Shown here one piece after another: positions 3,598 to 37,558 of a stretch of DNA of 64,000 bases; position 1 is the first letter of the stretch; each line of letters begins with the position of its first letter. Origin of the DNA: Patescibacteria group bacterium. GTDB taxonomy: Bacteria; Patescibacteriota; Minisyncoccia; Phycocordibacterales; JBBTRF01. Both the position numbers and the translations under genes were made by a program. Where the stretch lies: positions 161,642-225,641 of the forward strand of contig JBBTRF010000001.1 in assembly GCA_038065315.1 (NCBI GenBank), in the 5' to 3' direction. Under the pieces are notes generated by a model. The model was not told where the DNA came from. It did no database searches and worked only from the letters and a program-made list of their open reading frames with translations.

Positions 3598-4671
3598 TTA
3601 AAATCGATTCGCTAATGAGGAAGCGAGTTGGGAAACAGTCAACGCCCTACCCTCTCTTAAGATGCGATGAGAGATTTGCTGTATGATGTTTTTCTGACGG
3701 TAGAGCATTGGCATCTCGGGGCCGAGTATTTCAATGTTTGCTCTCGGTGGCCCCGACAGTAGATGCTCAAGCTCGATGAGTCCTAGAGCCACCGAAGTTT
3801 TTTGAAGCTCTACTGATCTTAAACCCACTATTTGCGAATACTGATCAGCAAATGCGACAAGACCCTCTGTCAGCTTTTGTAGCCCGTTCCGATTAGCTGA
3901 CAGGAGTAGCCTCAACATGAACTTACCTAAGTCTACATGTGGAATACCTACGCACAGCTTCGGATCAAGAAGACAAACCGACTGGCCGTCGCGGATAATG
4001 TTACCGTCCTTACAGTCACCGTGCAGGAGATTCCTCATAGTCAAATGTGCTGAGACAAGCTCGACTATATTCGAATGAAGCCCTCTCGCAATCATTGGTT
4101 GCTGGAAATTCAAGTCCTCAATAATGAGTGAGTCTGAGGTCGCGCTTATCTGTCTAGGCTTGAGATTGTCCGGTGCCTCAGTTTGATGGAGGCGAGCAAT
4201 ACATTTTGCCAATCCTTCAGCGAACGACTTGTCAAAAGCACCTGGATCAATGCACTTCCCCGGGATTTTTTCGAGTATGACAACATTTGGTCCAACAAAC
4301 TCTAGAATTCTTGGGACCCGAAACGCTCTATCCCAAAGAAATCTGAGCGACCGAACCTCTATGACGATGTCGTTGCTGCATGGCATGTTGCCACCGTCAA
4401 GTGTCTTAGAAAAAACGCTCGGTCCAGCTGCTAAAAACTTTTCGTAGGCGAATAGCATGCTTCTTCCAAAAAGCCCTGCCTTCAAAATTGCCTCTCTGCC
4501 ATTAAAAGAGCATGTGAAGACGTAATTTACGTGACTAGAATCCACCATTCGCAGGTTGCGGACAAAAACCCCGTTCCTTTTGAGCAAGCCGACGAAGTAT
4601 TTGCTCACAATTGAGACAAACTGTCGTTGTGTTTTATTCACGGTTAGTCCTTTCGTAGGTTGTATTTTCAA
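3598..4671 (-). CDS. Phosphotransferase (APH/choline-kinase-like kinase fold) family protein
   Basis: LLHGDCKDGNIIRDGQSVCLLDPK fits the Brenner HGDxxxxN catalytic motif plus a downstream Asp; the size (357 aa) fits the family. Convergent with the 736..3553 operon. Confidence 0.5.
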   Translation of the reverse strand: MKIQPTKGLTVNKTQRQFVSIVSKYFVGLLKRNGVFVRNLRMVDSSHVNYVFTCSFNGREAILKAGLFGRSMLFAYEKFLAAGPSVFSKTLDGGNMPCSNDIVIEVRSLRFLWDRAFRVPRILEFVGPNVVILEKIPGKCIDPGAFDKSFAEGLAKCIARLHQTEAPDNLKPRQISATSDSLIIEDLNFQQPMIARGLHSNIVELVSAHLTMRNLLHGDCKDGNIIRDGQSVCLLDPKLCVGIPHVDLGKFMLRLLLSANRNGLQKLTEGLVAFADQYSQIVGLRSVELQKTSVALGLIELEHLLSGPPRANIEILGPEMPMLYRQKNIIQQISHRILREGRALTVSQLASSLANRF

Positions 4672-4800
4672 AACTGAGAAAATAATACATACCTATAATA
4701 AAAATGTCAAGGGCCCATGATGGTTGAATAGCTTGTATCTACTCAAGGGTATTGACCAGATTGTGCAGCTCGGTCTTGTCGGCCTAGGTAATAGTGCAAA

Positions 4801-5544
4801 TTACAGCATCTCCCCCACCCTCCCCATCACCTTGTTCGCTCCTGCGTGGAAGTCGTCGACAGTGGGACCAACGGAGCCTTTGCCGAGCTGTGGTGCCTGA
4901 GTCGGGCTGACGGGGCTTACGACTTCCTTTGGGAGCATTGGCGTGCCGTAGCGGATCACGACAGTGCGACGACGTAGAAAAAAGTCAGCGGCAGTGAGAT
5001 TGACCAAGCCTTTCATCGCCACTGGTACGACTGGCGCTTGAGCGGCGTGGGACAAGAAGGCGACGCCACCGCGTGCTGGGCCAATCTTGCCATTGGCAGT
5101 GCGGATGCCCTCAGGGAAAATACAGACGCAACGGCCACGCTGGGCCAGTGCGATGAAGTTTTGTAGCGAATACGCGTAATCGTGATGACCTGAATACACT
5201 GGATACGCTCCTGCAAGGTTGAACAAAATGCCGCCGTACAAATACCGCCGCCAGCCGGAGGCATCATAGAAATCCTTCTTTTGTGACACGTAGTACATCG
5301 GTGAGAACCGCCAAAAGAATGGCAGACCGACGCGTACCAGGGGCCCATCCCACTCGCTAGAATGGTTGGGTGCGAAGATCAATGCGACCGTCTTGCCTGC
5401 CGCCTTTTGGGCCTTCTGGAAGGCCAGGAGCTGCTCGACGCCTTCGTATCGAATGCGGCAAAACAACTTGAATACGACAAGGGCGAATACGTAGATGATG
5501 GCCTGCAAAAGGACAGGGATGACGGAAAAGAAGCGTTTTCTCAT
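4801..5544 (-). CDS. PlsC-family lysophospholipid acyltransferase (second paralog)
   Basis: N-terminal TM segment, NHSSEWD (HX4D motif) and FPEGIRT (block III motif). Confidence 0.65.
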   Translation of the reverse strand: MRKRFFSVIPVLLQAIIYVFALVVFKLFCRIRYEGVEQLLAFQKAQKAAGKTVALIFAPNHSSEWDGPLVRVGLPFFWRFSPMYYVSQKKDFYDASGWRRYLYGGILFNLAGAYPVYSGHHDYAYSLQNFIALAQRGRCVCIFPEGIRTANGKIGPARGGVAFLSHAAQAPVVPVAMKGLVNLTAADFFLRRRTVVIRYGTPMLPKEVVSPVSPTQAPQLGKGSVGPTVDDFHAGANKVMGRVGEML

Positions 5545-26994: not shown

Positions 26995-27858
26995 CTAGCA
27001 CACGCTCGCCAACTCCTCTTTCACTTCGGCGATTTTGCTGGACGAGAGGCCTATCGAGGTCAGTACAGACGGATCGGCATTGAGTGCCTTGCACAGTACG
27101 ATGCCTCGACGAAAGAGTTCCTGTCGGTGACTGTCGCTGAGCGTGCTGATGCAGGTGAGCGGATGCAGGCCAGACTCCTCGATCCACTGTTCGAGGTTTT
27201 CTTTTTCTGGATAGTTCCAGCCGATCATTTTTAGGCCGGCACATTTGCCATAATCGATAGCGGTCTGAGTAAATTTTGTATTCGTCACCAGCCAGCCCTC
27301 GCCAAATGGACGCTTCTTGCCGCCGTAATCAAAACTCTGCGAGCGTAGGTCATCAAATCGTGCCTTCACATAAAGGGCAACCTTCAGGTCGGTCTTAAAT
27401 CCGAGCTCGTTGTGGAATTTCAATTCGCACATGATGAGGTCTGGGCCAGCGAGGACAGCCGTCTCGGTCGCGCCGTCTTTGTACGCCACCACGTCCACTT
27501 CATGCGGTACACAGGCACCCCGCACTGTCTGGTCGGTGAGGGCAGTGTAGCCTTTTGCACGGAATACTTCGGCGATAAATTTCTCGAAGGGAAAGCCGGT
27601 GGGGCCGAGGCCGGCGAGGGCGCGGCGAAGAGAATACTTCGCCGCTACCGGCTTCTGGTGCTGCCGCAACAGATTGAATGCGTGATGATAGATATCGTTC
27701 GTCGTCACTCCTTCCACCAATTCACCTTGAATGTGCGCAACAATCTTCTCGATGACGGCATCGTCTGCTCCAACACGCTTCAACGAATAAACAAGCTTCT
27801 CCGGACGGAAAGCTTGTTTACTACCATCAGCCTTTAAAATATGTACTGAGGAATTCAT
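26995..27858 (-). CDS. ATP-cone domain fused to a PD-(D/E)xK (Mrr/restriction-endonuclease-like) nuclease domain
   Basis: N-terminal VHILKADGSKQAFRPEKLVYSL (ATP-cone, as in NrdR/RNR); C-terminal HEVDVVAY ... IMCELKFH gives a D...E-x-K nuclease signature as in Mrr_cat. Confidence 0.55.
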   Translation of the reverse strand: MNSSVHILKADGSKQAFRPEKLVYSLKRVGADDAVIEKIVAHIQGELVEGVTTNDIYHHAFNLLRQHQKPVAAKYSLRRALAGLGPTGFPFEKFIAEVFRAKGYTALTDQTVRGACVPHEVDVVAYKDGATETAVLAGPDLIMCELKFHNELGFKTDLKVALYVKARFDDLRSQSFDYGGKKRPFGEGWLVTNTKFTQTAIDYGKCAGLKMIGWNYPEKENLEQWIEESGLHPLTCISTLSDSHRQELFRRGIVLCKALNADPSVLTSIGLSSSKIAEVKEELASVC

Positions 27859-30546: not shown

Positions 30547-31842
30547 TTAGATCGGCAAATTGCTTGGGGCCTCTGATCGGCGTGACTCGATACGATCCAG
30601 AGAAGGCGTAGTCGCAGTCGCACCAGGAAGATGGAAAATGGTCGCCAAAGATTCGGTGGTCATGACAAACGACTTAGACTTCCAATGCTTGTAGGGATAG
30701 GTAAAGAACGAGCGGTGTTTGAAAGCATCCAAAAATGCCTTTTCATAATACGTACGGCGCATACGCCCAAAATCTTGCCACGGATAGTCGAAATCGGTAA
30801 AGAAGCCGAGCCCGAGATTGTTCAAATAGTTGTAATTGCCACCATACTGTCGGAAGGCGCCGATCAAGCCAGGCACGCGCACCGGCAGTTTGTTGGCTGC
30901 CTTTGTTGCAATATACATACCGCGAATAGCGGTATCGAACGGAAGCTTGTGCGCATTACGCTCAATGGCGGCGATCGCTTCAGCCTGACCCTTGGTAAGA
31001 TTTGGGAAACCGGGATATTCAGAGTCAGTCTCCGGCGTGGCTGCCTTTTTGATATTTGCAATCTCCGTCTCACACGACTTGAGCCAATCGTCCACCTTCT
31101 TCAAATGTCCTTCTTGCAATCCAAGCTTTTTGTGCGCCTGGATGAGGATCTGGAACCAGGCCTGCTCTCCAGTTTGCAACGAACCCATCCATTCGAGCAT
31201 CGAGTTTATTGGATCGATCTTGAATTCTTCCTTTTCCGAAGCCTTGTCCAAGCCAAAATCCACATAACTCTTGATCTGATACATATCCTGCGAACCGGGA
31301 GTCTTGCCCTTCTTCGAATGTTTAAAATACGTGCCCCACATCGGCATTTCTTCCGGATGAGTGAAGACCTGGTCGGTGTAGTCCGGTACCTCTTCAATCA
31401 CGATGCCGGGATAATACGCATAGAGCTGTGCCTCAATGAGATCCTTGTATTTAGTATGCGTCCAAATATAGAAATGTACCTTGCCACCGATCGAGGCGAT
31501 CTCCAGAGAGAACCAGTTGCGGATCTTGCCATTGATGTACGTATCGATCCAGCTCGCCGAACCTTTCTGCCAGATAGAAGCGAGAAAAATTTCCATTGCC
31601 AATGGCGACTTGGTAACCTCCTTCGGCAGTCGTATCTCGAGGAGCGTGCCACCCTGTTTCTCCACAAACTCACTGCGCACATAATGAAACCAGGTATAAA
31701 AGAAAATGTATCCGCAGAAAAAGGGTAGCCAGATCGGATACATCGACAAGAACGTCGAGATGCTTTGGTATAACAAACCACTAAAATCAGCGCCGAGAGC
31801 TGGGTCCATGAAGGTAATAATAACAAAAAAGTGCTGTCCCAC
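30547..31842 (-). CDS. Hypothetical membrane protein (two N-terminal TM helices plus about 350-aa soluble domain)
   Basis: 431-aa ORF with protein-like composition. The 365-aa plus-strand ORF 30631..31728 opposite it is R/L-rich and is taken as its antisense shadow. Confidence 0.5.
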   Translation of the reverse strand: MGQHFFVIITFMDPALGADFSGLLYQSISTFLSMYPIWLPFFCGYIFFYTWFHYVRSEFVEKQGGTLLEIRLPKEVTKSPLAMEIFLASIWQKGSASWIDTYINGKIRNWFSLEIASIGGKVHFYIWTHTKYKDLIEAQLYAYYPGIVIEEVPDYTDQVFTHPEEMPMWGTYFKHSKKGKTPGSQDMYQIKSYVDFGLDKASEKEEFKIDPINSMLEWMGSLQTGEQAWFQILIQAHKKLGLQEGHLKKVDDWLKSCETEIANIKKAATPETDSEYPGFPNLTKGQAEAIAAIERNAHKLPFDTAIRGMYIATKAANKLPVRVPGLIGAFRQYGGNYNYLNNLGLGFFTDFDYPWQDFGRMRRTYYEKAFLDAFKHRSFFTYPYKHWKSKSFVMTTESLATIFHLPGATATTPSLDRIESRRSEAPSNLPI

Positions 31843-33090: not shown

Positions 33091-36000
33091 CTACTCTTCC
33101 GCGACTACGACATTCACCAACTTCCCTTTCACCACGATCACCTTCACAATCTTTTTGCCCTCAATCCACCTCTTCACTTCCGGCAAGGCGAGTGCGGTCT
33201 TCTCGAGATCTGCATCAGAAGCCCCTGCCGGTGCGGCAAATTCTGCGCGAATCTTGCCGTTCACCTGCACGCCAATCTTGCGGCCAGCCTCTTGGATTTT
33301 TGCCTCATCACAGACCGGCCACGACGCGAGATGGATGCTGGTCTTATTGCCGAGCTTCGTCCACAGCTCTTCGGTCATGTGCGGTGCAAATGGCGCGAGC
33401 AGTTTTAGCAATGTCTCGTATTGCTCACGAGAAACACTCGCCTGCTCATCCATCGCGTTGAGCAACACCATCAAGGTACTCACCGCGGTGTTGAATTTCA
33501 TCTCCGAAATATCGGAAGTCACCTTTTTCACGCTTTTATGCATCAAAGATTCGATCTCGACTGACACATTCGCATCGCCACCAATAGCCGGCGCATTTTG
33601 TACCTTCCCTGCGAGCTTCCAGATGCGTTCCAGGAAGCGACGCGAGCCGATCATGCTGTTGGTATTCCAAGCGATCTGCTGGTCGAATGGTCCCATGAAC
33701 ATTTCGTACACACGCAGAGTGTCCGCGCCATAGGTAGCGATAATCTCATCAGGGTTCACGACATTACCCCAGCGCTTCGACATCTTGCGTCCATCTTCGG
33801 CCATGATGAGGCCGACGTGCTGCAGCTTTTTGAACGGCTCGGTGGTCGAGACCACCCCAATGTCATACAGAAACTTGTGCCAGAAGCGCGCGTAGATAAG
33901 GTGGCGCGTTGCATGCTCGGCCCCGCCGACATACAGGTCTACAGGCGCCCAATATTGCTCCTTGCGCGGATCCACGAGCGCTTTTTTGTTCTGCGCATCC
34001 ATGTATCGCAAGTAATACCAACTCGAACCTGCCCATTGAGGCATGGTGTTGGTTTCGCGCTTGGCCTTACCACGACACTTCGGACACTTCGTGTTTACCC
34101 ACTTCTCAATCGCCGCCAAAGGCGACTCACCAGTGCCAGTCGGCTCGTATGACTTCACTTTTGGAAGCTTCACAGGCAGTTCCTTTTCAGGTACAGGCAC
34201 GACTCCACACTTCTCACAATGCACCACAGGGATCGGCTCTCCCCAATATCGCTGACGTGAGAACACCCAGTCGCGGAGACGGAAGGTCGTCTTCTTCTTG
34301 GCGAGATTTTTTGACTCAAGATGAGCAATGATTTCCTTTCGGACACTTCGCGCATTCTCGTCGGCGAATTCCTTTGGCTCAGTCAACACACCAGCCTGAG
34401 CATCAGCAAAGCACACCTCCTGCGCTCGCACTTTCTCAGCCAGAGCAGCATCTTTTGGATACAAAACGGTCTTCAGTTTGATGCCGTACTTTTTTGCAAA
34501 AACAAAGTCGCGGTCGTCATGAGCCGAACACTTCACGATACCAGTTCCGTAGTCGGCCAAAGCAAAGCTCGCCACCCAGATAGGTAGGTCACCGTTGCCG
34601 AGTGGGTCGACAATATATCGGCCCGTGAAAATTCCCTCGGATTCCTTCTCTTCAGCAAATCCCTGCTGAGCACGTTTTGCGACGAGTGCTGCGCAAAAAT
34701 CCAAAACTTTCTGCTTGTCTTTTGTTCCTTCAAGCAACGTCTGCAAGAATGGATGATCTGGCGCAATAACAACAAATGTATCGGCGTAGCAGGCTTCAAA
34801 GTGAGCTGAGAAGGTCTGGATAGTGAGATTCGTATCTTTGACCGGTGCAGTGAAAATCATGCCGTCGCTCTTTCCAATCCAATTTCGTTGGAGCTCTTTG
34901 ATAGAAGTCGGCCAATCGAGTGCGGGCTTTGCGATATTTTTTTCTTTGCCAGTGAATACATCCCACAAATAATTCATGTCTGGACGATTCAAAAAGCCGG
35001 CGACTTCCGCGCACGACAACCACACCACTTCATGCAAAGCTTTTTCTTGCTCGTCGATTTCTTTCCAGGCATCATCGGTGAGCTCGAGGTATACGCCGGT
35101 GAAATGCGCGAAGCGATTCACCTTTTTGATCGCTTGATAAAACTGCGAGTCGAGCTTGGCGAATTCGCGAACAAAGCGAACATTCTGATATCCGGTCTCT
35201 TCTTGTACTTCGCGCACCGCTGCTTCGGCGAGCTGTTCGTTCTTCTCGACACCACCCACCACGAGGCCGTGCCAGTCATTGCTCTTCCAACGGAGACAGA
35301 GAAACTTATCTTCGGACCAATGCTTCACCACACAAACTACAGCATCGCGCTCTTCGAGTGGCATATCCGCACGCACCGCATCGGGACCCGTATCGCGGAT
35401 CATGAGCGGCACCGCGCGCTCTGTCGCATCCAAATCCGCGAGCAATCGCTCCGCGTAATCCGTGATCTTCAACACCCACTGACGAATCGGCTTTTTCTCG
35501 ACGACACTGCCGCAGCGCTCGCACTTGCCGTCCTCGAGATCTTCGTTGGCCAAGCCGGTCTTGCAGGATGGACACCAGTTGATCGGCTCATGCGACTGAT
35601 ACGCGAGACCCTTCTCAAGTAATTTCAAAAAGATCCACTGTGTCCATTTGTAGTAGGCAGGGTCGGTGGTGTTGATCTCGCGGGACCAATCGTAGTCGAA
35701 GCCAAACATCTCGAGCTGCTCTTTGTAGCGCTGCACATTTTTCTCCACGGCGATAGCCGGGTTCGTCTTCATTTTGATCGCGTAGTTCTCCGCGGGCAAT
35801 CCAAAAGCATCGAAACCCATCGGATGCAACACCGAATGACCTTGCATACGCTTCATACGCGACACGACGTCGGTAGCGATGTAGCCCTTTGGATGACCCA
35901 CATGGAGACCTTCGCCCGACGGATACGGGAACATATCGAGGGCGTAGAATTTCTTCGCAGCGGCGGTACCGTTCGCAACCACGCCTTTCTTGGCTTGCGA

Positions 36001-36099
36001 CTCCTTGGTCGCGTAGATTTTTTTCTTCGCCCACTGCTTCTGCCACTTCGGCTCGATGGCGAGATGGTCGTACGGCGGCAGCAATTTCTGCGGTTTCAT
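33091..36099 (-). CDS. leuS: Leucine--tRNA ligase with an inserted NUDIX-hydrolase domain (residues about 225-394)
   Basis: HVGHP HIGH motif, KMSKRWGN KMSKS motif, and an editing domain present. A segment with a textbook Nudix box (GGVEKNEQLAEAAVREVQEETG) is inserted between ITDYAERLLADLD and WPTSIKELQRNWIG; total 1002 aa versus about 830-860 for typical bacterial LeuRS. Confidence 0.9.
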   Translation of the reverse strand: MKPQKLLPPYDHLAIEPKWQKQWAKKKIYATKESQAKKGVVANGTAAAKKFYALDMFPYPSGEGLHVGHPKGYIATDVVSRMKRMQGHSVLHPMGFDAFGLPAENYAIKMKTNPAIAVEKNVQRYKEQLEMFGFDYDWSREINTTDPAYYKWTQWIFLKLLEKGLAYQSHEPINWCPSCKTGLANEDLEDGKCERCGSVVEKKPIRQWVLKITDYAERLLADLDATERAVPLMIRDTGPDAVRADMPLEERDAVVCVVKHWSEDKFLCLRWKSNDWHGLVVGGVEKNEQLAEAAVREVQEETGYQNVRFVREFAKLDSQFYQAIKKVNRFAHFTGVYLELTDDAWKEIDEQEKALHEVVWLSCAEVAGFLNRPDMNYLWDVFTGKEKNIAKPALDWPTSIKELQRNWIGKSDGMIFTAPVKDTNLTIQTFSAHFEACYADTFVVIAPDHPFLQTLLEGTKDKQKVLDFCAALVAKRAQQGFAEEKESEGIFTGRYIVDPLGNGDLPIWVASFALADYGTGIVKCSAHDDRDFVFAKKYGIKLKTVLYPKDAALAEKVRAQEVCFADAQAGVLTEPKEFADENARSVRKEIIAHLESKNLAKKKTTFRLRDWVFSRQRYWGEPIPVVHCEKCGVVPVPEKELPVKLPKVKSYEPTGTGESPLAAIEKWVNTKCPKCRGKAKRETNTMPQWAGSSWYYLRYMDAQNKKALVDPRKEQYWAPVDLYVGGAEHATRHLIYARFWHKFLYDIGVVSTTEPFKKLQHVGLIMAEDGRKMSKRWGNVVNPDEIIATYGADTLRVYEMFMGPFDQQIAWNTNSMIGSRRFLERIWKLAGKVQNAPAIGGDANVSVEIESLMHKSVKKVTSDISEMKFNTAVSTLMVLLNAMDEQASVSREQYETLLKLLAPFAPHMTEELWTKLGNKTSIHLASWPVCDEAKIQEAGRKIGVQVNGKIRAEFAAPAGASDADLEKTALALPEVKRWIEGKKIVKVIVVKGKLVNVVVAEE
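34920..35427 (-). other. NUDIX domain insertion within leuS (approximate coding coordinates)
   Basis: Nudix box G-x5-E-x7-REVQEETG, plus flanking beta-strand-like segments; flanked on both sides by conserved LeuRS sequence. Confidence 0.6.
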
Positions 36100-36649: not shown

Positions 36650-37558
36650 ATGAAGAAGCAACGTTTCCGTAGTGTAGCGCCGCGCCTGGTGACAGCCGCG
36701 AAGGCAGCCCGTCGTCCCAACATCTTGTGGACGACCTTGATCATCGTGTTGTTGGCCATTATTGGCTTCTTAGCATTCAACACTCATCGCAAATCGCAAC
36801 GAGGGGCGATCCACAAAAAGGCGCTCGCCCTCGGACTCTTCGGAGCCCCGCAGGAAGTAGAGGAGCGCCACGTATGGGTCAGTGAACACCCTCAGATCCC
36901 TGGAAGAAACGGGGAGATACCTGTGCACATCATGTTCCGCAAAGATAATCATGATTCATGGGAACTCACCGGCACCGGCGCAAGACTCGGCGGGAAATAC
37001 ACCAACTGGGTGCTCACCGCCTACCACGTCTTCGAGGGTCGTTCTGGTCAATACGGTTGTCGGAAAATCGGAACAAACGAGTTTACGGGCAAAGAACCCA
37101 TCTTCCCCATTCTCTCGCTCCCGCCAACACTACAGGTGGACGACTCAATCATCTGCACGATCAACCCGGATGGACTGGTCTTCCCCCACCTCACTGCAAC
37201 ACTATCAACAAACGTGTTCGGCTACGATTCCGAGGACGCGAAACGCCAATACTCCGGCGAGACATGGCCAGCGAAGATTCATTTTGGCACCTACCCGGAA
37301 AAAACTATTGAGGGCCTATTCTCAGTGAAAGTTCGTGGCAACACGCACCATGTCACAATGGACTGGGCTCCAGTCCCCGGCGAGAGCGGGACCGTAGCTA
37401 GTGTCGAACATGAAGACCACAACGCCTATCTTGTGATCATTCGTGGAGCTCCAGTGGCCGAAAGACTGCTCGAGCAGCTGAATCCGGAAAATCGGAAGCG
37501 TTTCAAATGGTCGAAGGACAAGATCTACGGAATTGGGAACTTGGTCAAGATCGAGTAG
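36650..37558 (+). CDS. Membrane-anchored trypsin-like (S1 family-like) serine peptidase, putative
   Basis: N-terminal TM (ILWTTLIIVLLAIIGFLAF); TAYHV (His, like TAAHC) and PGESGT (Ser, like GDSGGP) motifs in the correct order. Confidence 0.45.
   Translation: MKKQRFRSVAPRLVTAAKAARRPNILWTTLIIVLLAIIGFLAFNTHRKSQRGAIHKKALALGLFGAPQEVEERHVWVSEHPQIPGRNGEIPVHIMFRKDNHDSWELTGTGARLGGKYTNWVLTAYHVFEGRSGQYGCRKIGTNEFTGKEPIFPILSLPPTLQVDDSIICTINPDGLVFPHLTATLSTNVFGYDSEDAKRQYSGETWPAKIHFGTYPEKTIEGLFSVKVRGNTHHVTMDWAPVPGESGTVASVEHEDHNAYLVIIRGAPVAERLLEQLNPENRKRFKWSKDKIYGIGNLVKIE

Follow-up and report, generated by a model that had tools for sequence, protein, structure and literature searches.

The window under study is a stretch of 64,000 nucleotides from the genome of a Patescibacteria group bacterium (contig JBBTRF010000001.1, positions 161,642 to 225,641). 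It contains a leuS gene whose product, a leucyl-tRNA synthetase (LeuRS), harbours a Nudix hydrolase domain just ahead of its CP1 editing domain. Domain scans and structure predictions show the insert to be a well-folded, autonomous domain whose metal-binding Nudix box is intact. By sequence comparison it belongs to one Patescibacteria-specific Nudix family, which also exists as free-standing proteins of about 160 residues, and which has been inserted into LeuRS, or lost from it, many times, at no fewer than four surface sites near CP1 and the ZN2-like region. We give a probability of about 0.5 to the reading, taken in its broad form, that the module is a pyrophosphohydrolase coupled to the synthetase or clearing its by-products. 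The gene and its parts, all on the minus strand, are as follows.

33091..36099, minus strand: complete leuS coding sequence, bacterial-type LeuRS with inserted Nudix domain (open reading frame list; 1002 amino acids plus stop)
35425..36099, minus strand: N-terminal half, catalytic (Rossmann) domain, aligning with T. thermophilus LeuRS 4-209
35893..35904, minus strand: HVGH motif (HIGH type), residues 66-69, invariant in a 20-sequence alignment (A2)
within 35425..36099, minus strand: ZN1 Cys4 module (C176, C179, C193, C196), invariant columns of alignment A2
34924..35424, minus strand: 167-residue insertion at site A, residues 226-392, a gap in the PDB and MAFFT alignments
35002..35340, minus strand: Pfam NUDIX domain PF00293, residues 254-366, E 3.6e-12, 46.9 bits against a gathering score of 21.1
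35188..35256, minus strand: Nudix box G282-Y304, GGVEKNEQLAEAAVREVQEETGY, read off the sequence
34315..34887, minus strand: CP1 editing domain, residues 405-595, PF13603, 136.5 bits
33772..33786, minus strand: KMSKS-type loop KMSKR, residues 772-776, read off the sequence and invariant in alignment A2
33220..33555, minus strand: anticodon-binding domain, residues 849-960, PF08264, 85.3 bits

The insert lies between the helix …ITDYAERLLADLD, in which the Rossmann half ends (helix 212-223 in the full-length model), and the WP.SIKE.QRNWIG segment that leads to the first β-linker of CP1. When the protein is compared with the PDB using phmmer, residues 10-225 align with residues 4-209 of T. thermophilus LeuRS and residues 393-768 with residues 209-580. 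The alignment blocks thus resume directly on either side, and residues 226-392 form a clean insertion at T. thermophilus position 209/210. A MAFFT alignment against insert-free LeuRS leaves the same gap. A preliminary description of this DNA, made from its letters alone, had proposed an insertion of about 170 residues at the junction preceding CP1, bounded by the sequences …WVLKITDYAERLLADLD and WPTSIKELQRNWIGKSDG. Both are indeed present in the reading frame, the alignment to the T. thermophilus enzyme sets the length at 167 residues, and domain scans, structure alignment, two structure predictions and fold searches agree that this is a Nudix domain within LeuRS. The insert begins with two short lead-in strands bearing a conserved GPDAvR…P.EER motif, continues with the Nudix fold and ends with a C-terminal linker of about ten residues (…GKEKNIAKPAL).

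That description had also read a canonical Nudix box in GGVEKNEQLAEAAVREVQEETGY, and suggested a scan with PF00293. The full protein scores well above the gathering score, and the insert, once excised, gives an even better match (E 1.6e-13, 51.3 bits). The box fits the definition GX5EX7REUXEEXGU (PMC5389931) exactly, as G282-[GVEKN]-E288-[QLAEAAV]-R296-E297-V-Q-E300-E301-T-G303-Y304. Its metal-binding residues are E297, E300 and E301, and E288 and R296 make up a further pair. This is the single occurrence of the pattern in the six-frame open reading frames of at least 60 residues from the 64-kb window, where no second member of the family and no other Nudix box was found. Modelled in isolation, the insert reaches a predicted local distance difference test (pLDDT) of 91.6 and a predicted template-modelling (TM) score of 0.85, and has the alpha/beta/alpha Nudix fold. 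The AlphaFold2 model of the full-length protein is of lower overall quality (pLDDT 79.9, predicted TM score 0.66). There the insert is flanked by helices 212-223 and 398-408, with residues 250-385, at pLDDT 84-94, among the best-predicted parts.

The enzyme that carries the module is otherwise familiar. An unbroken frame at 33091..36099 codes for the 1002 residues, where the preliminary description had placed a LeuRS of that length. The NCBIfam model TIGR00396 (leuS_bact) recognizes it with 953.1 bits (cutoff 548.4), in two stretches separated by the insert. T. thermophilus LeuRS, 1h3n, is its match in the PDB (E 3.5e-194). Pfam finds the tRNA-synt_1 domain. A C-terminal tRNA-binding domain follows the anticodon-binding domain up to residue 1002, and the C-terminal part aligns with residues 637-876 of the T. 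thermophilus enzyme. Residues 581-636 of the latter, its leucine-specific domain, stay unaligned in the PDB comparison and have no counterpart in this LeuRS, at its residues 768/772 (about nucleotides 33786..33797). Set against canonical LeuRS (T. thermophilus 1h3n and 2bte, E. coli 4aq7, N. gonorrhoeae 6q89), the window protein displays the same domain order and signatures, the rest of its model matching bacterial LeuRS structures with Foldseek target-normalised TM scores of 0.79-0.83. It departs from them by the Nudix domain at T. thermophilus 209/210, by the missing leucine-specific domain and by a CP1 motif reading SAHFEA where TTRPDT is the rule. The editing domain, the KMSKS loop and the anticodon-binding region, all previously said to be present, are found as PF13603, KMSKR and PF08264, with the reservation that the T-rich motif of CP1 is non-canonical. 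The relatives found come from Nomurabacteria, Paceibacterota, Parcubacteria, Wolfebacteria and Taylorbacteria, and the gene is best explained, from its sequence, as coding for a functional bacterial-type LeuRS of a Parcubacteria/Paceibacteria-like member of the Patescibacteria.

The module is under purifying selection. The closest genome match (L001, the metagenome-assembled genome ELA631) has the same site-A architecture and 89% identity, while synonymous sites are saturated between the two genes (synonymous divergence, dS, about 1.3). The ratio of non-synonymous to synonymous divergence is 0.046 both for the insert and for the gene as a whole, and 0.027 for the Nudix core, so that selection holds the insert as tightly as the essential enzyme around it. 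Across 291 aligned modules, the equivalents of E297, E300 and E301 (E16, E19 and E20 of the box) are conserved at 95-100% in every context, so that the module looks catalytically competent. The first glutamate and the arginine of the box covary in these modules, the pair being E,R in 123 of them, Q,A in 97 and Q,M in 18. E/R predominates in embedded modules, the window module included, and Q/A in free-standing ones. This suggests two functional subtypes, E/R on the one side, Q/A or Q/M on the other, with embedded copies that look like a partly distinct lineage. Beyond the box, the family has a signature of its own: an invariant arginine in the lead-in, an aromatic pair at positions +16 and +17 (F320-Y321 here; F or Y at +16, Y or F and occasionally H at +17 across the family), K..NR and E…H…W. 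We infer that the invariant basic and polar residues outside the box (R, K, N, R, H) are of the phosphate-binding kind.

Curated Nudix equivalogs do not accommodate the module. Scores against the RppH equivalogs NF001938 and NF001936 are 26.6 bits (cutoff 116) and 24.3 bits (cutoff 118), against the MutT 8-oxo-dGTP diphosphatase TIGR00586 15 bits (cutoff 97.9) and against NudC NF001299 14.6 bits (cutoff 158). Assignment to a curated NCBIfam Nudix subfamily was abandoned, every match falling far below its cutoff. Downstream of the box, in …QNVRFVREFAKLDSQFYQAIKKVNRF…, neither the SQPWPFPxS motif of NudC nor the proline of ADPRases is seen (subgroup motifs as in PMC5389931). A tyrosine in the loop that follows the box is the reported hallmark of hydrolases of diadenosine polyphosphates (ApnA) (Dunn et al. 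1999, summarised in PMC5389931). The aromatic pair of the family, F320-Y321 here, is consistent with it, as a putative equivalent. Among proteins of related fold, the Enterococcus faecalis Nudix protein 2AZW is free-standing and 18% identical to the module; being a structural-genomics entry without known substrate (PMC5389931), it is of no help for function. The ApnA and polyphosphate hydrolases (M. tuberculosis Rv2985/MutT1, T. thermophilus Ndx1, DIPP1, the Aquifex Ap4A hydrolase) are separate proteins, whereas the module is built into a synthetase. The same is true of established relationships between a synthetase, Ap4A and a Nudix enzyme, such as that of LysRS with NUDT2 or RppH: there the hydrolase is a separate entity, here the bond is covalent. 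NadM-Nudix proteins come nearer in kind, as they join a nucleotidyltransferase with a HIGH motif, of the class I aminoacyl-tRNA synthetase (aaRS) superfamily, to a Nudix domain acting on a related nucleotide (PMC7824862). They are terminal fusions, however, devoted to NAD metabolism and with a Nudix domain of the ADP-ribose pyrophosphatase subfamily, in contrast to the loop insertion of the window LeuRS, and the NadM-Nudix model NF003791 and similar ones give only weak NCBIfam matches. A precedent for an extra enzymatic domain in a class Ia synthetase is isoleucyl-tRNA synthetase with an N-acetyltransferase (NF040702, ileS_w_GNAT), which NCBI curates as an exception model; also a weak match here, it differs in both synthetase and added fold.

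Where else is this module found? A search with the insert alone returned fragments of LeuRS with a homologous module elsewhere, inside CP1 after AHDxRDFxFAKKYxLPIKxVI, together with free-standing Nudix proteins of about 155 residues. A profile search returned 226 relatives, the best 120 of which are all free-standing Patescibacteria proteins of about 150-200 residues, mostly 155-165. HMMER was then run exhaustively against 1.84 billion cluster representatives and gave 2648 matches at E <= 1e-3, 123 of them at E <= 1e-30. The best 150 of these 2648 matches, to which the following site counts refer, were sorted with a local LeuRS hidden Markov model into 104 LeuRS or LeuRS fragments, 35 free-standing proteins and 11 other architectures. 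The modules embedded in LeuRS occupy four recurrent sites.

Site A, LeuRS profile position about 212: window LeuRS 225/393, T. thermophilus 209/210; 13 modules
Site C, LeuRS profile position about 243: hairpin just ahead of the T-rich motif, T. thermophilus about 235-240; 5 modules
Site B, LeuRS profile position about 370: variable loop late in CP1, T. thermophilus about 362-380; 89 modules
Site D, LeuRS profile position about 485: ZN2-like region before CPKC; 3-4 modules

A single LeuRS may contain up to three Nudix modules; the combinations include A+A, A+B, C+B, B+D, B+B and A+A+B. Among the GTDB species representatives, one has two modules in tandem at site A (L002), and seven have one module at site B (L009, L010, L011, L022, L028, L030, L033). 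The site-A tandems (residues 225-363 and 398-540 of L002; also P0124-P0127) always consist of a type 2 module (NPKTGxYLGL…EYFAAHKDxNR) followed by a type 1 module (KHWSEDKYL…FYH..K..NRFAHF); in P0124 and P0125 a third module is present as well, at site B. Such a pair may form an intramolecular pseudo-dimer. The family also reaches a second synthetase. An archaeal-type prolyl-tRNA synthetase (ProRS) of 643 residues (P0257) has the same kind of Nudix domain at residues 398-515, between its HGTP anticodon-binding and ProRS C-terminal domains, and two fragments (P0178, P0208) are arranged alike.

The free-standing proteins of Patescibacteria (about 155-165 residues, for example P0003 from Candidatus Nomurabacteria) are 38-50% identical to the module over its whole length. 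They share its lead-in (…DA…P..ER) and its signature outside the box (F[YF]..K..NR…E…H…W). They differ from it in being separate genes, unlinked to leuS, and in having mostly the Q/A pair. None of them adjoined leuS in the five genomic contexts examined. In one (L086), the free-standing gene (5001-5486) follows a HAD gene (4400-4996) after a gap of four nucleotides; in another (L087), genes for HIT and Ser_hydrolase proteins stand within a few kilobases. These are the same types of small hydrolases as those found inside LeuRS.

As a sample unbiased by the module, the window LeuRS was used as a query after removal of its insert, and the 120 closest LeuRS clusters were retained. PF00293 is present in 33 of them (15 modules occupy site A, 21 site B), and Nudix domains make up 36 of the 46 inserts of at least 60 residues. 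A survey of Patescibacteria LeuRS had been called for by the preliminary description, which did not know the architecture as a standard one. It is not standard in LeuRS, to be sure, yet it is not unique either: we are dealing with the minority, site-A form of a widespread architecture, as the 104 LeuRS-embedded sequences among the 150 best representatives make clear. The distribution is patchy. An insert-free LeuRS of 832 residues (P0273), with 81% backbone identity to that of the window and a scar-free DLD|SLDWP junction, is placed between Nudix-bearing relatives of 88% and 78.5% identity; LeuRS can therefore do without the module. Fitch parsimony on a backbone neighbour-joining tree asks for at least 10 changes for Nudix at site A and at least 14 at site B, counts that are approximate with this type of tree and the possible horizontal transfer of leuS. 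Modules of sites A and B fall in shared sequence clusters at an identity of at least 45%. The window module, for example, clusters with the site-B modules of L011 and P0124, and one large cluster unites 131 free-standing genes with 19 embedded modules. Gains, losses and relocations of the module must therefore have been frequent.

Nudix is not the only guest of these loops. A Ham1-like domain sits exactly at site A in a LeuRS with 70% backbone identity to that of the window (P0280 residues 217-357; PF01725, 26.4 bits, gathering score 22.5), as it does in its homologue P0278. A Nudix-bearing LeuRS (P0172) has, besides, a strong Ham1 domain near its C-terminal part (residues 1005-1170, E 1e-51). 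HAD domains occupy site D in P0276 and P0353, by Pfam coordinates, and in P0312, by insert position and precomputed Pfam annotation. Ser_hydrolase α/β domains (PF06821) are inserted in L003, L050, P0158 and P0381, site C being among the sites occupied, and an S-adenosylmethionine (SAM) methyltransferase at site B in L014. LeuRS of Patescibacteria thus appear as mosaics of up to 1330 residues, with enzyme-like modules in the same surface loops, sometimes beside Nudix. An insert of about 130 residues at profile position 445, without Pfam match, is found in P0168 and in P0172. Finally, a LeuRS from Peribacteria (L008, 1004 residues) has at site C, in-frame, an IS200-like Y1_Tnp domain (PF01797, E 4.9e-17, HVHLLV motif) flanked by KSEGAEVSF and FTTRVDT, which might hint at a route of entry of domains into LeuRS loops.

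What could the module be doing there? Inserted in-frame into a surface loop of LeuRS, between helix 212-223 and the segment leading to CP1, it would in our view act as a tethered hydrolase, mechanistically independent of the synthetase, and contribute neither to aminoacylation nor to the editing reactions of CP1. Its substrate would probably be a nucleoside 5'-polyphosphate, most plausibly the Ap3-6N and p4A compounds formed from the aminoacyl-adenylate and NTPs or, failing that, a non-canonical or damaged NTP. The synthetase would in this way carry its own clean-up or alarmone-clearing activity. A nucleoside polyphosphate is favoured because the aminoacyl-adenylate is turned by aaRS into Ap3-5N, p4A and the like (PMC7705103), because the nearest characterised folds are those of ApnA, polyphosphate or cap hydrolases, because the association recurs in two unrelated synthetases and because a Ham1-like domain, a non-homologous NTP pyrophosphatase, replaces the module at site A. 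Hydrolysis of the Ap4A type, already considered in the preliminary description, is plausible. One set of facts weighs on the other side: the Ham1-like swap, like the other foreign inserts (HAD, α/β-hydrolase, methyltransferase, transposase-like), is explained equally well if the module has no business with LeuRS at all.

This last explanation, possible though somewhat doubtful in our eyes, is that the loops flanking CP1 are unusually permissive in LeuRS of Patescibacteria, and that accessory hydrolases of small size, common in these reduced genomes, were fixed there by way of co-expression, saved regulatory sequence or drift. The module would then clean up nucleotides in general, just as its free-standing paralogue does, while riding on an essential, constitutively expressed gene. 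The diversity of unrelated domains in the same sites (Ham1-like at A, Ser_hydrolase and Y1_Tnp at C, SAM methyltransferase at B, HAD at D) speaks for it, as do the very patchy gains and losses, the scar-free loss in the 81%-identical relative, the abundance of free-standing homologues away from leuS and the HAD, Ser_hydrolase and HIT genes that accompany some of these. It does not account well, however, for the dominance of one Nudix family among the large inserts of the backbone-selected sample, nor for its reuse of at least four sites and its presence as many as three times in a single LeuRS. It must also cope with the presence of the family in ProRS, a class II enzyme of different fold, and with the prevalence of E/R in embedded copies as against Q/A in free-standing ones, a difference that points to specialisation of the embedded lineage more than to capture at random.

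At the other extreme, the tethered hydrolase might be wired to the synthetase, either by hydrolysing in cis the adenylylated polyphosphates (alarmones of the Ap4A type, or cap precursors) made at the LeuRS or ProRS active site, or by having its own activity gated by the movements of the CP1 hinge upon binding of leucine and tRNA. We regard this tighter coupling as rather unlikely. Were it true, LeuRS would have a second role in these bacteria with minimal genomes, that of controlling nucleotide alarmones in step with nutrients, and the repeated, independent insertions, the type 2-type 1 tandems and the Ham1-like swap would reflect strong selection for a pyrophosphatase attached to the synthetase.

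An activity directed at RNA is improbable. A Nudix domain of the RppH or decapping kind would act on the RNA 5' end, perhaps taking pyrophosphate, or an Np4A or NAD-type cap, off precursors of tRNA(Leu) and tRNA(Pro) or off other RNAs that the synthetase brings in. The module falls far short of the RppH equivalog, no RNA-binding extension was identified in it, and it is dispensable in LeuRS and mostly free-standing elsewhere. Mature tRNA 5' ends are, moreover, generated by RNase P, which leaves such an enzyme with no obvious substrate.

Still less probable is a sensor without catalysis, whereby LeuRS would be regulated allosterically through a nucleotide or alarmone bound to the Nudix fold, in the manner of the Nudix-like domains of NrtR-type regulators. 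Sensor-type Nudix domains typically have a degenerate box. Here the catalytic glutamates and the box as a whole are conserved at 95-100%, and the purely regulatory, non-catalytic role mooted in the preliminary description is disfavoured by the constancy of the three metal-binding residues over the 291 modules.

The position of the insert next to CP1 invites another thought, the more so because the editing site of this LeuRS is peculiar. The T-rich motif reads SAHFEA (residues 431-436, nucleotides 34792..34809, minus strand; FSAHFEAC in place of FTTRPDTL) where nearly all LeuRS have TTRPDT, and G-IVKCSAHD stands for the usual GAVMAVPAHD. The universal aspartate of CP1 is retained (SAHDDRD). A census of about 200 LeuRS finds the SAHFEA variant also in L005, L006, L009, P0124, P0130, P0149 and P0192, where it marks a subclade, with Nudix or, as in L005 and L006, without. 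L002, L015, L027 and L054 have a second variant of the motif, (Y/F)DS(I/V)PQTF. LeuRS of the SAHFEA type may differ in the specificity or competence of editing; it is this competence that the variant concerns, not membership in the LeuRS family. Could the Nudix domain hydrolyse non-cognate aminoacyl-adenylates, as a pre-transfer editing device that offsets the deviant CP1? This seems hardly credible. In the census, the insert and the non-canonical motif show no correlation, most Nudix-bearing LeuRS having TTRPDT. The module is also found free-standing and in ProRS, and a LeuRS 81% identical to that of the window lacks it. Hydrolysis of an aminoacyl-adenylate, envisaged in the preliminary description, is unlikely on chemical grounds as well, since this molecule is an acyl-phosphate with no pyrophosphate bond. 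To our knowledge it is not among the classes of Nudix substrates.

An artefactual origin of the insert (a chimeric assembly, a frameshifted gene, or an element of the intein type excised from the translated protein) has a negligible probability: the reading frame is continuous, the guanine-plus-cytosine content is the same across the insert (0.50-0.58) as in its flanks, the site-A architecture recurs in at least five independent assemblies (L001 and, at 78-91% backbone identity, P0130, P0272, P0274 and P0275) and dozens of species-level clusters, and the protein is conserved despite saturated synonymous divergence. The chimera or frameshift that the preliminary description had named as a possible objection is thereby excluded. 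An intein is ruled out by the junctions DLD|ATER and KPAL|DWP, where splice residues are absent: the first residue of the insert is not C, S or T, and the C-terminal junction lacks HN followed by C, S or T.

Few enzymes are as conserved as the aaRS, and in bacteria these seldom contain additional catalytic domains. In the poorly understood Patescibacteria, or candidate phyla radiation, the same hydrolase family has repeatedly entered one essential synthetase, and it is also present in a second, unrelated one. This offers a handle on the disposal of the nucleotide by-products and alarmones that synthetases make, and on the way new domains are grafted into essential proteins of streamlined genomes. 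For protein engineering, the insertion sites designate LeuRS loops that tolerate grafts of 150-350 residues. In the literature we found no description of a Nudix domain in LeuRS, ProRS or any other aaRS, subscription journals being covered in part, and a comprehensive review of the Nudix clan does not mention tRNA synthetases. The proteins themselves are already in public databases, where precomputed Pfam strings show PF00293 inside LeuRS. Known kinds are combined, an aaRS with an accessory domain and a Nudix hydrolase; it is the pattern of recurrence that is unusually rich. NCBI names these proteins 'leucine--tRNA ligase' or only 'class I tRNA ligase family protein', the latter applying to the Nudix-bearing P0295, P0314 and P0365 and also to the Nudix-free P0344. 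Conversely, two free-standing Nudix proteins of 157 residues (P0014, P0018) are mislabelled 'leuS' in NCBI records.

The neighbourhood of leuS in the window is ordinary chromosome. Toward higher coordinates lie a 302-residue open reading frame, YchF and G6PD. Toward lower coordinates we find an M3 peptidase, an ATP-cone/Mrr protein, MnmA, YceG/MltG and a Sigma70_r4 plus HARE-HTH protein. An Rfam scan of the window found one tRNA-Ala and nothing else. Three further reading frames may be listed, the last of them for its unusual pairing of domains.

36650..37555, plus strand: open reading frame of 302 residues without Pfam match, flanking the leuS region
30550..31842, minus strand: open reading frame of 431 residues without Pfam match, overlapping a 365-residue frame on the opposite strand (30631..31728)
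26998..27858, minus strand: 287 residues, Pfam ATP-cone with a weak match to Mrr_cat (restriction-endonuclease-like)

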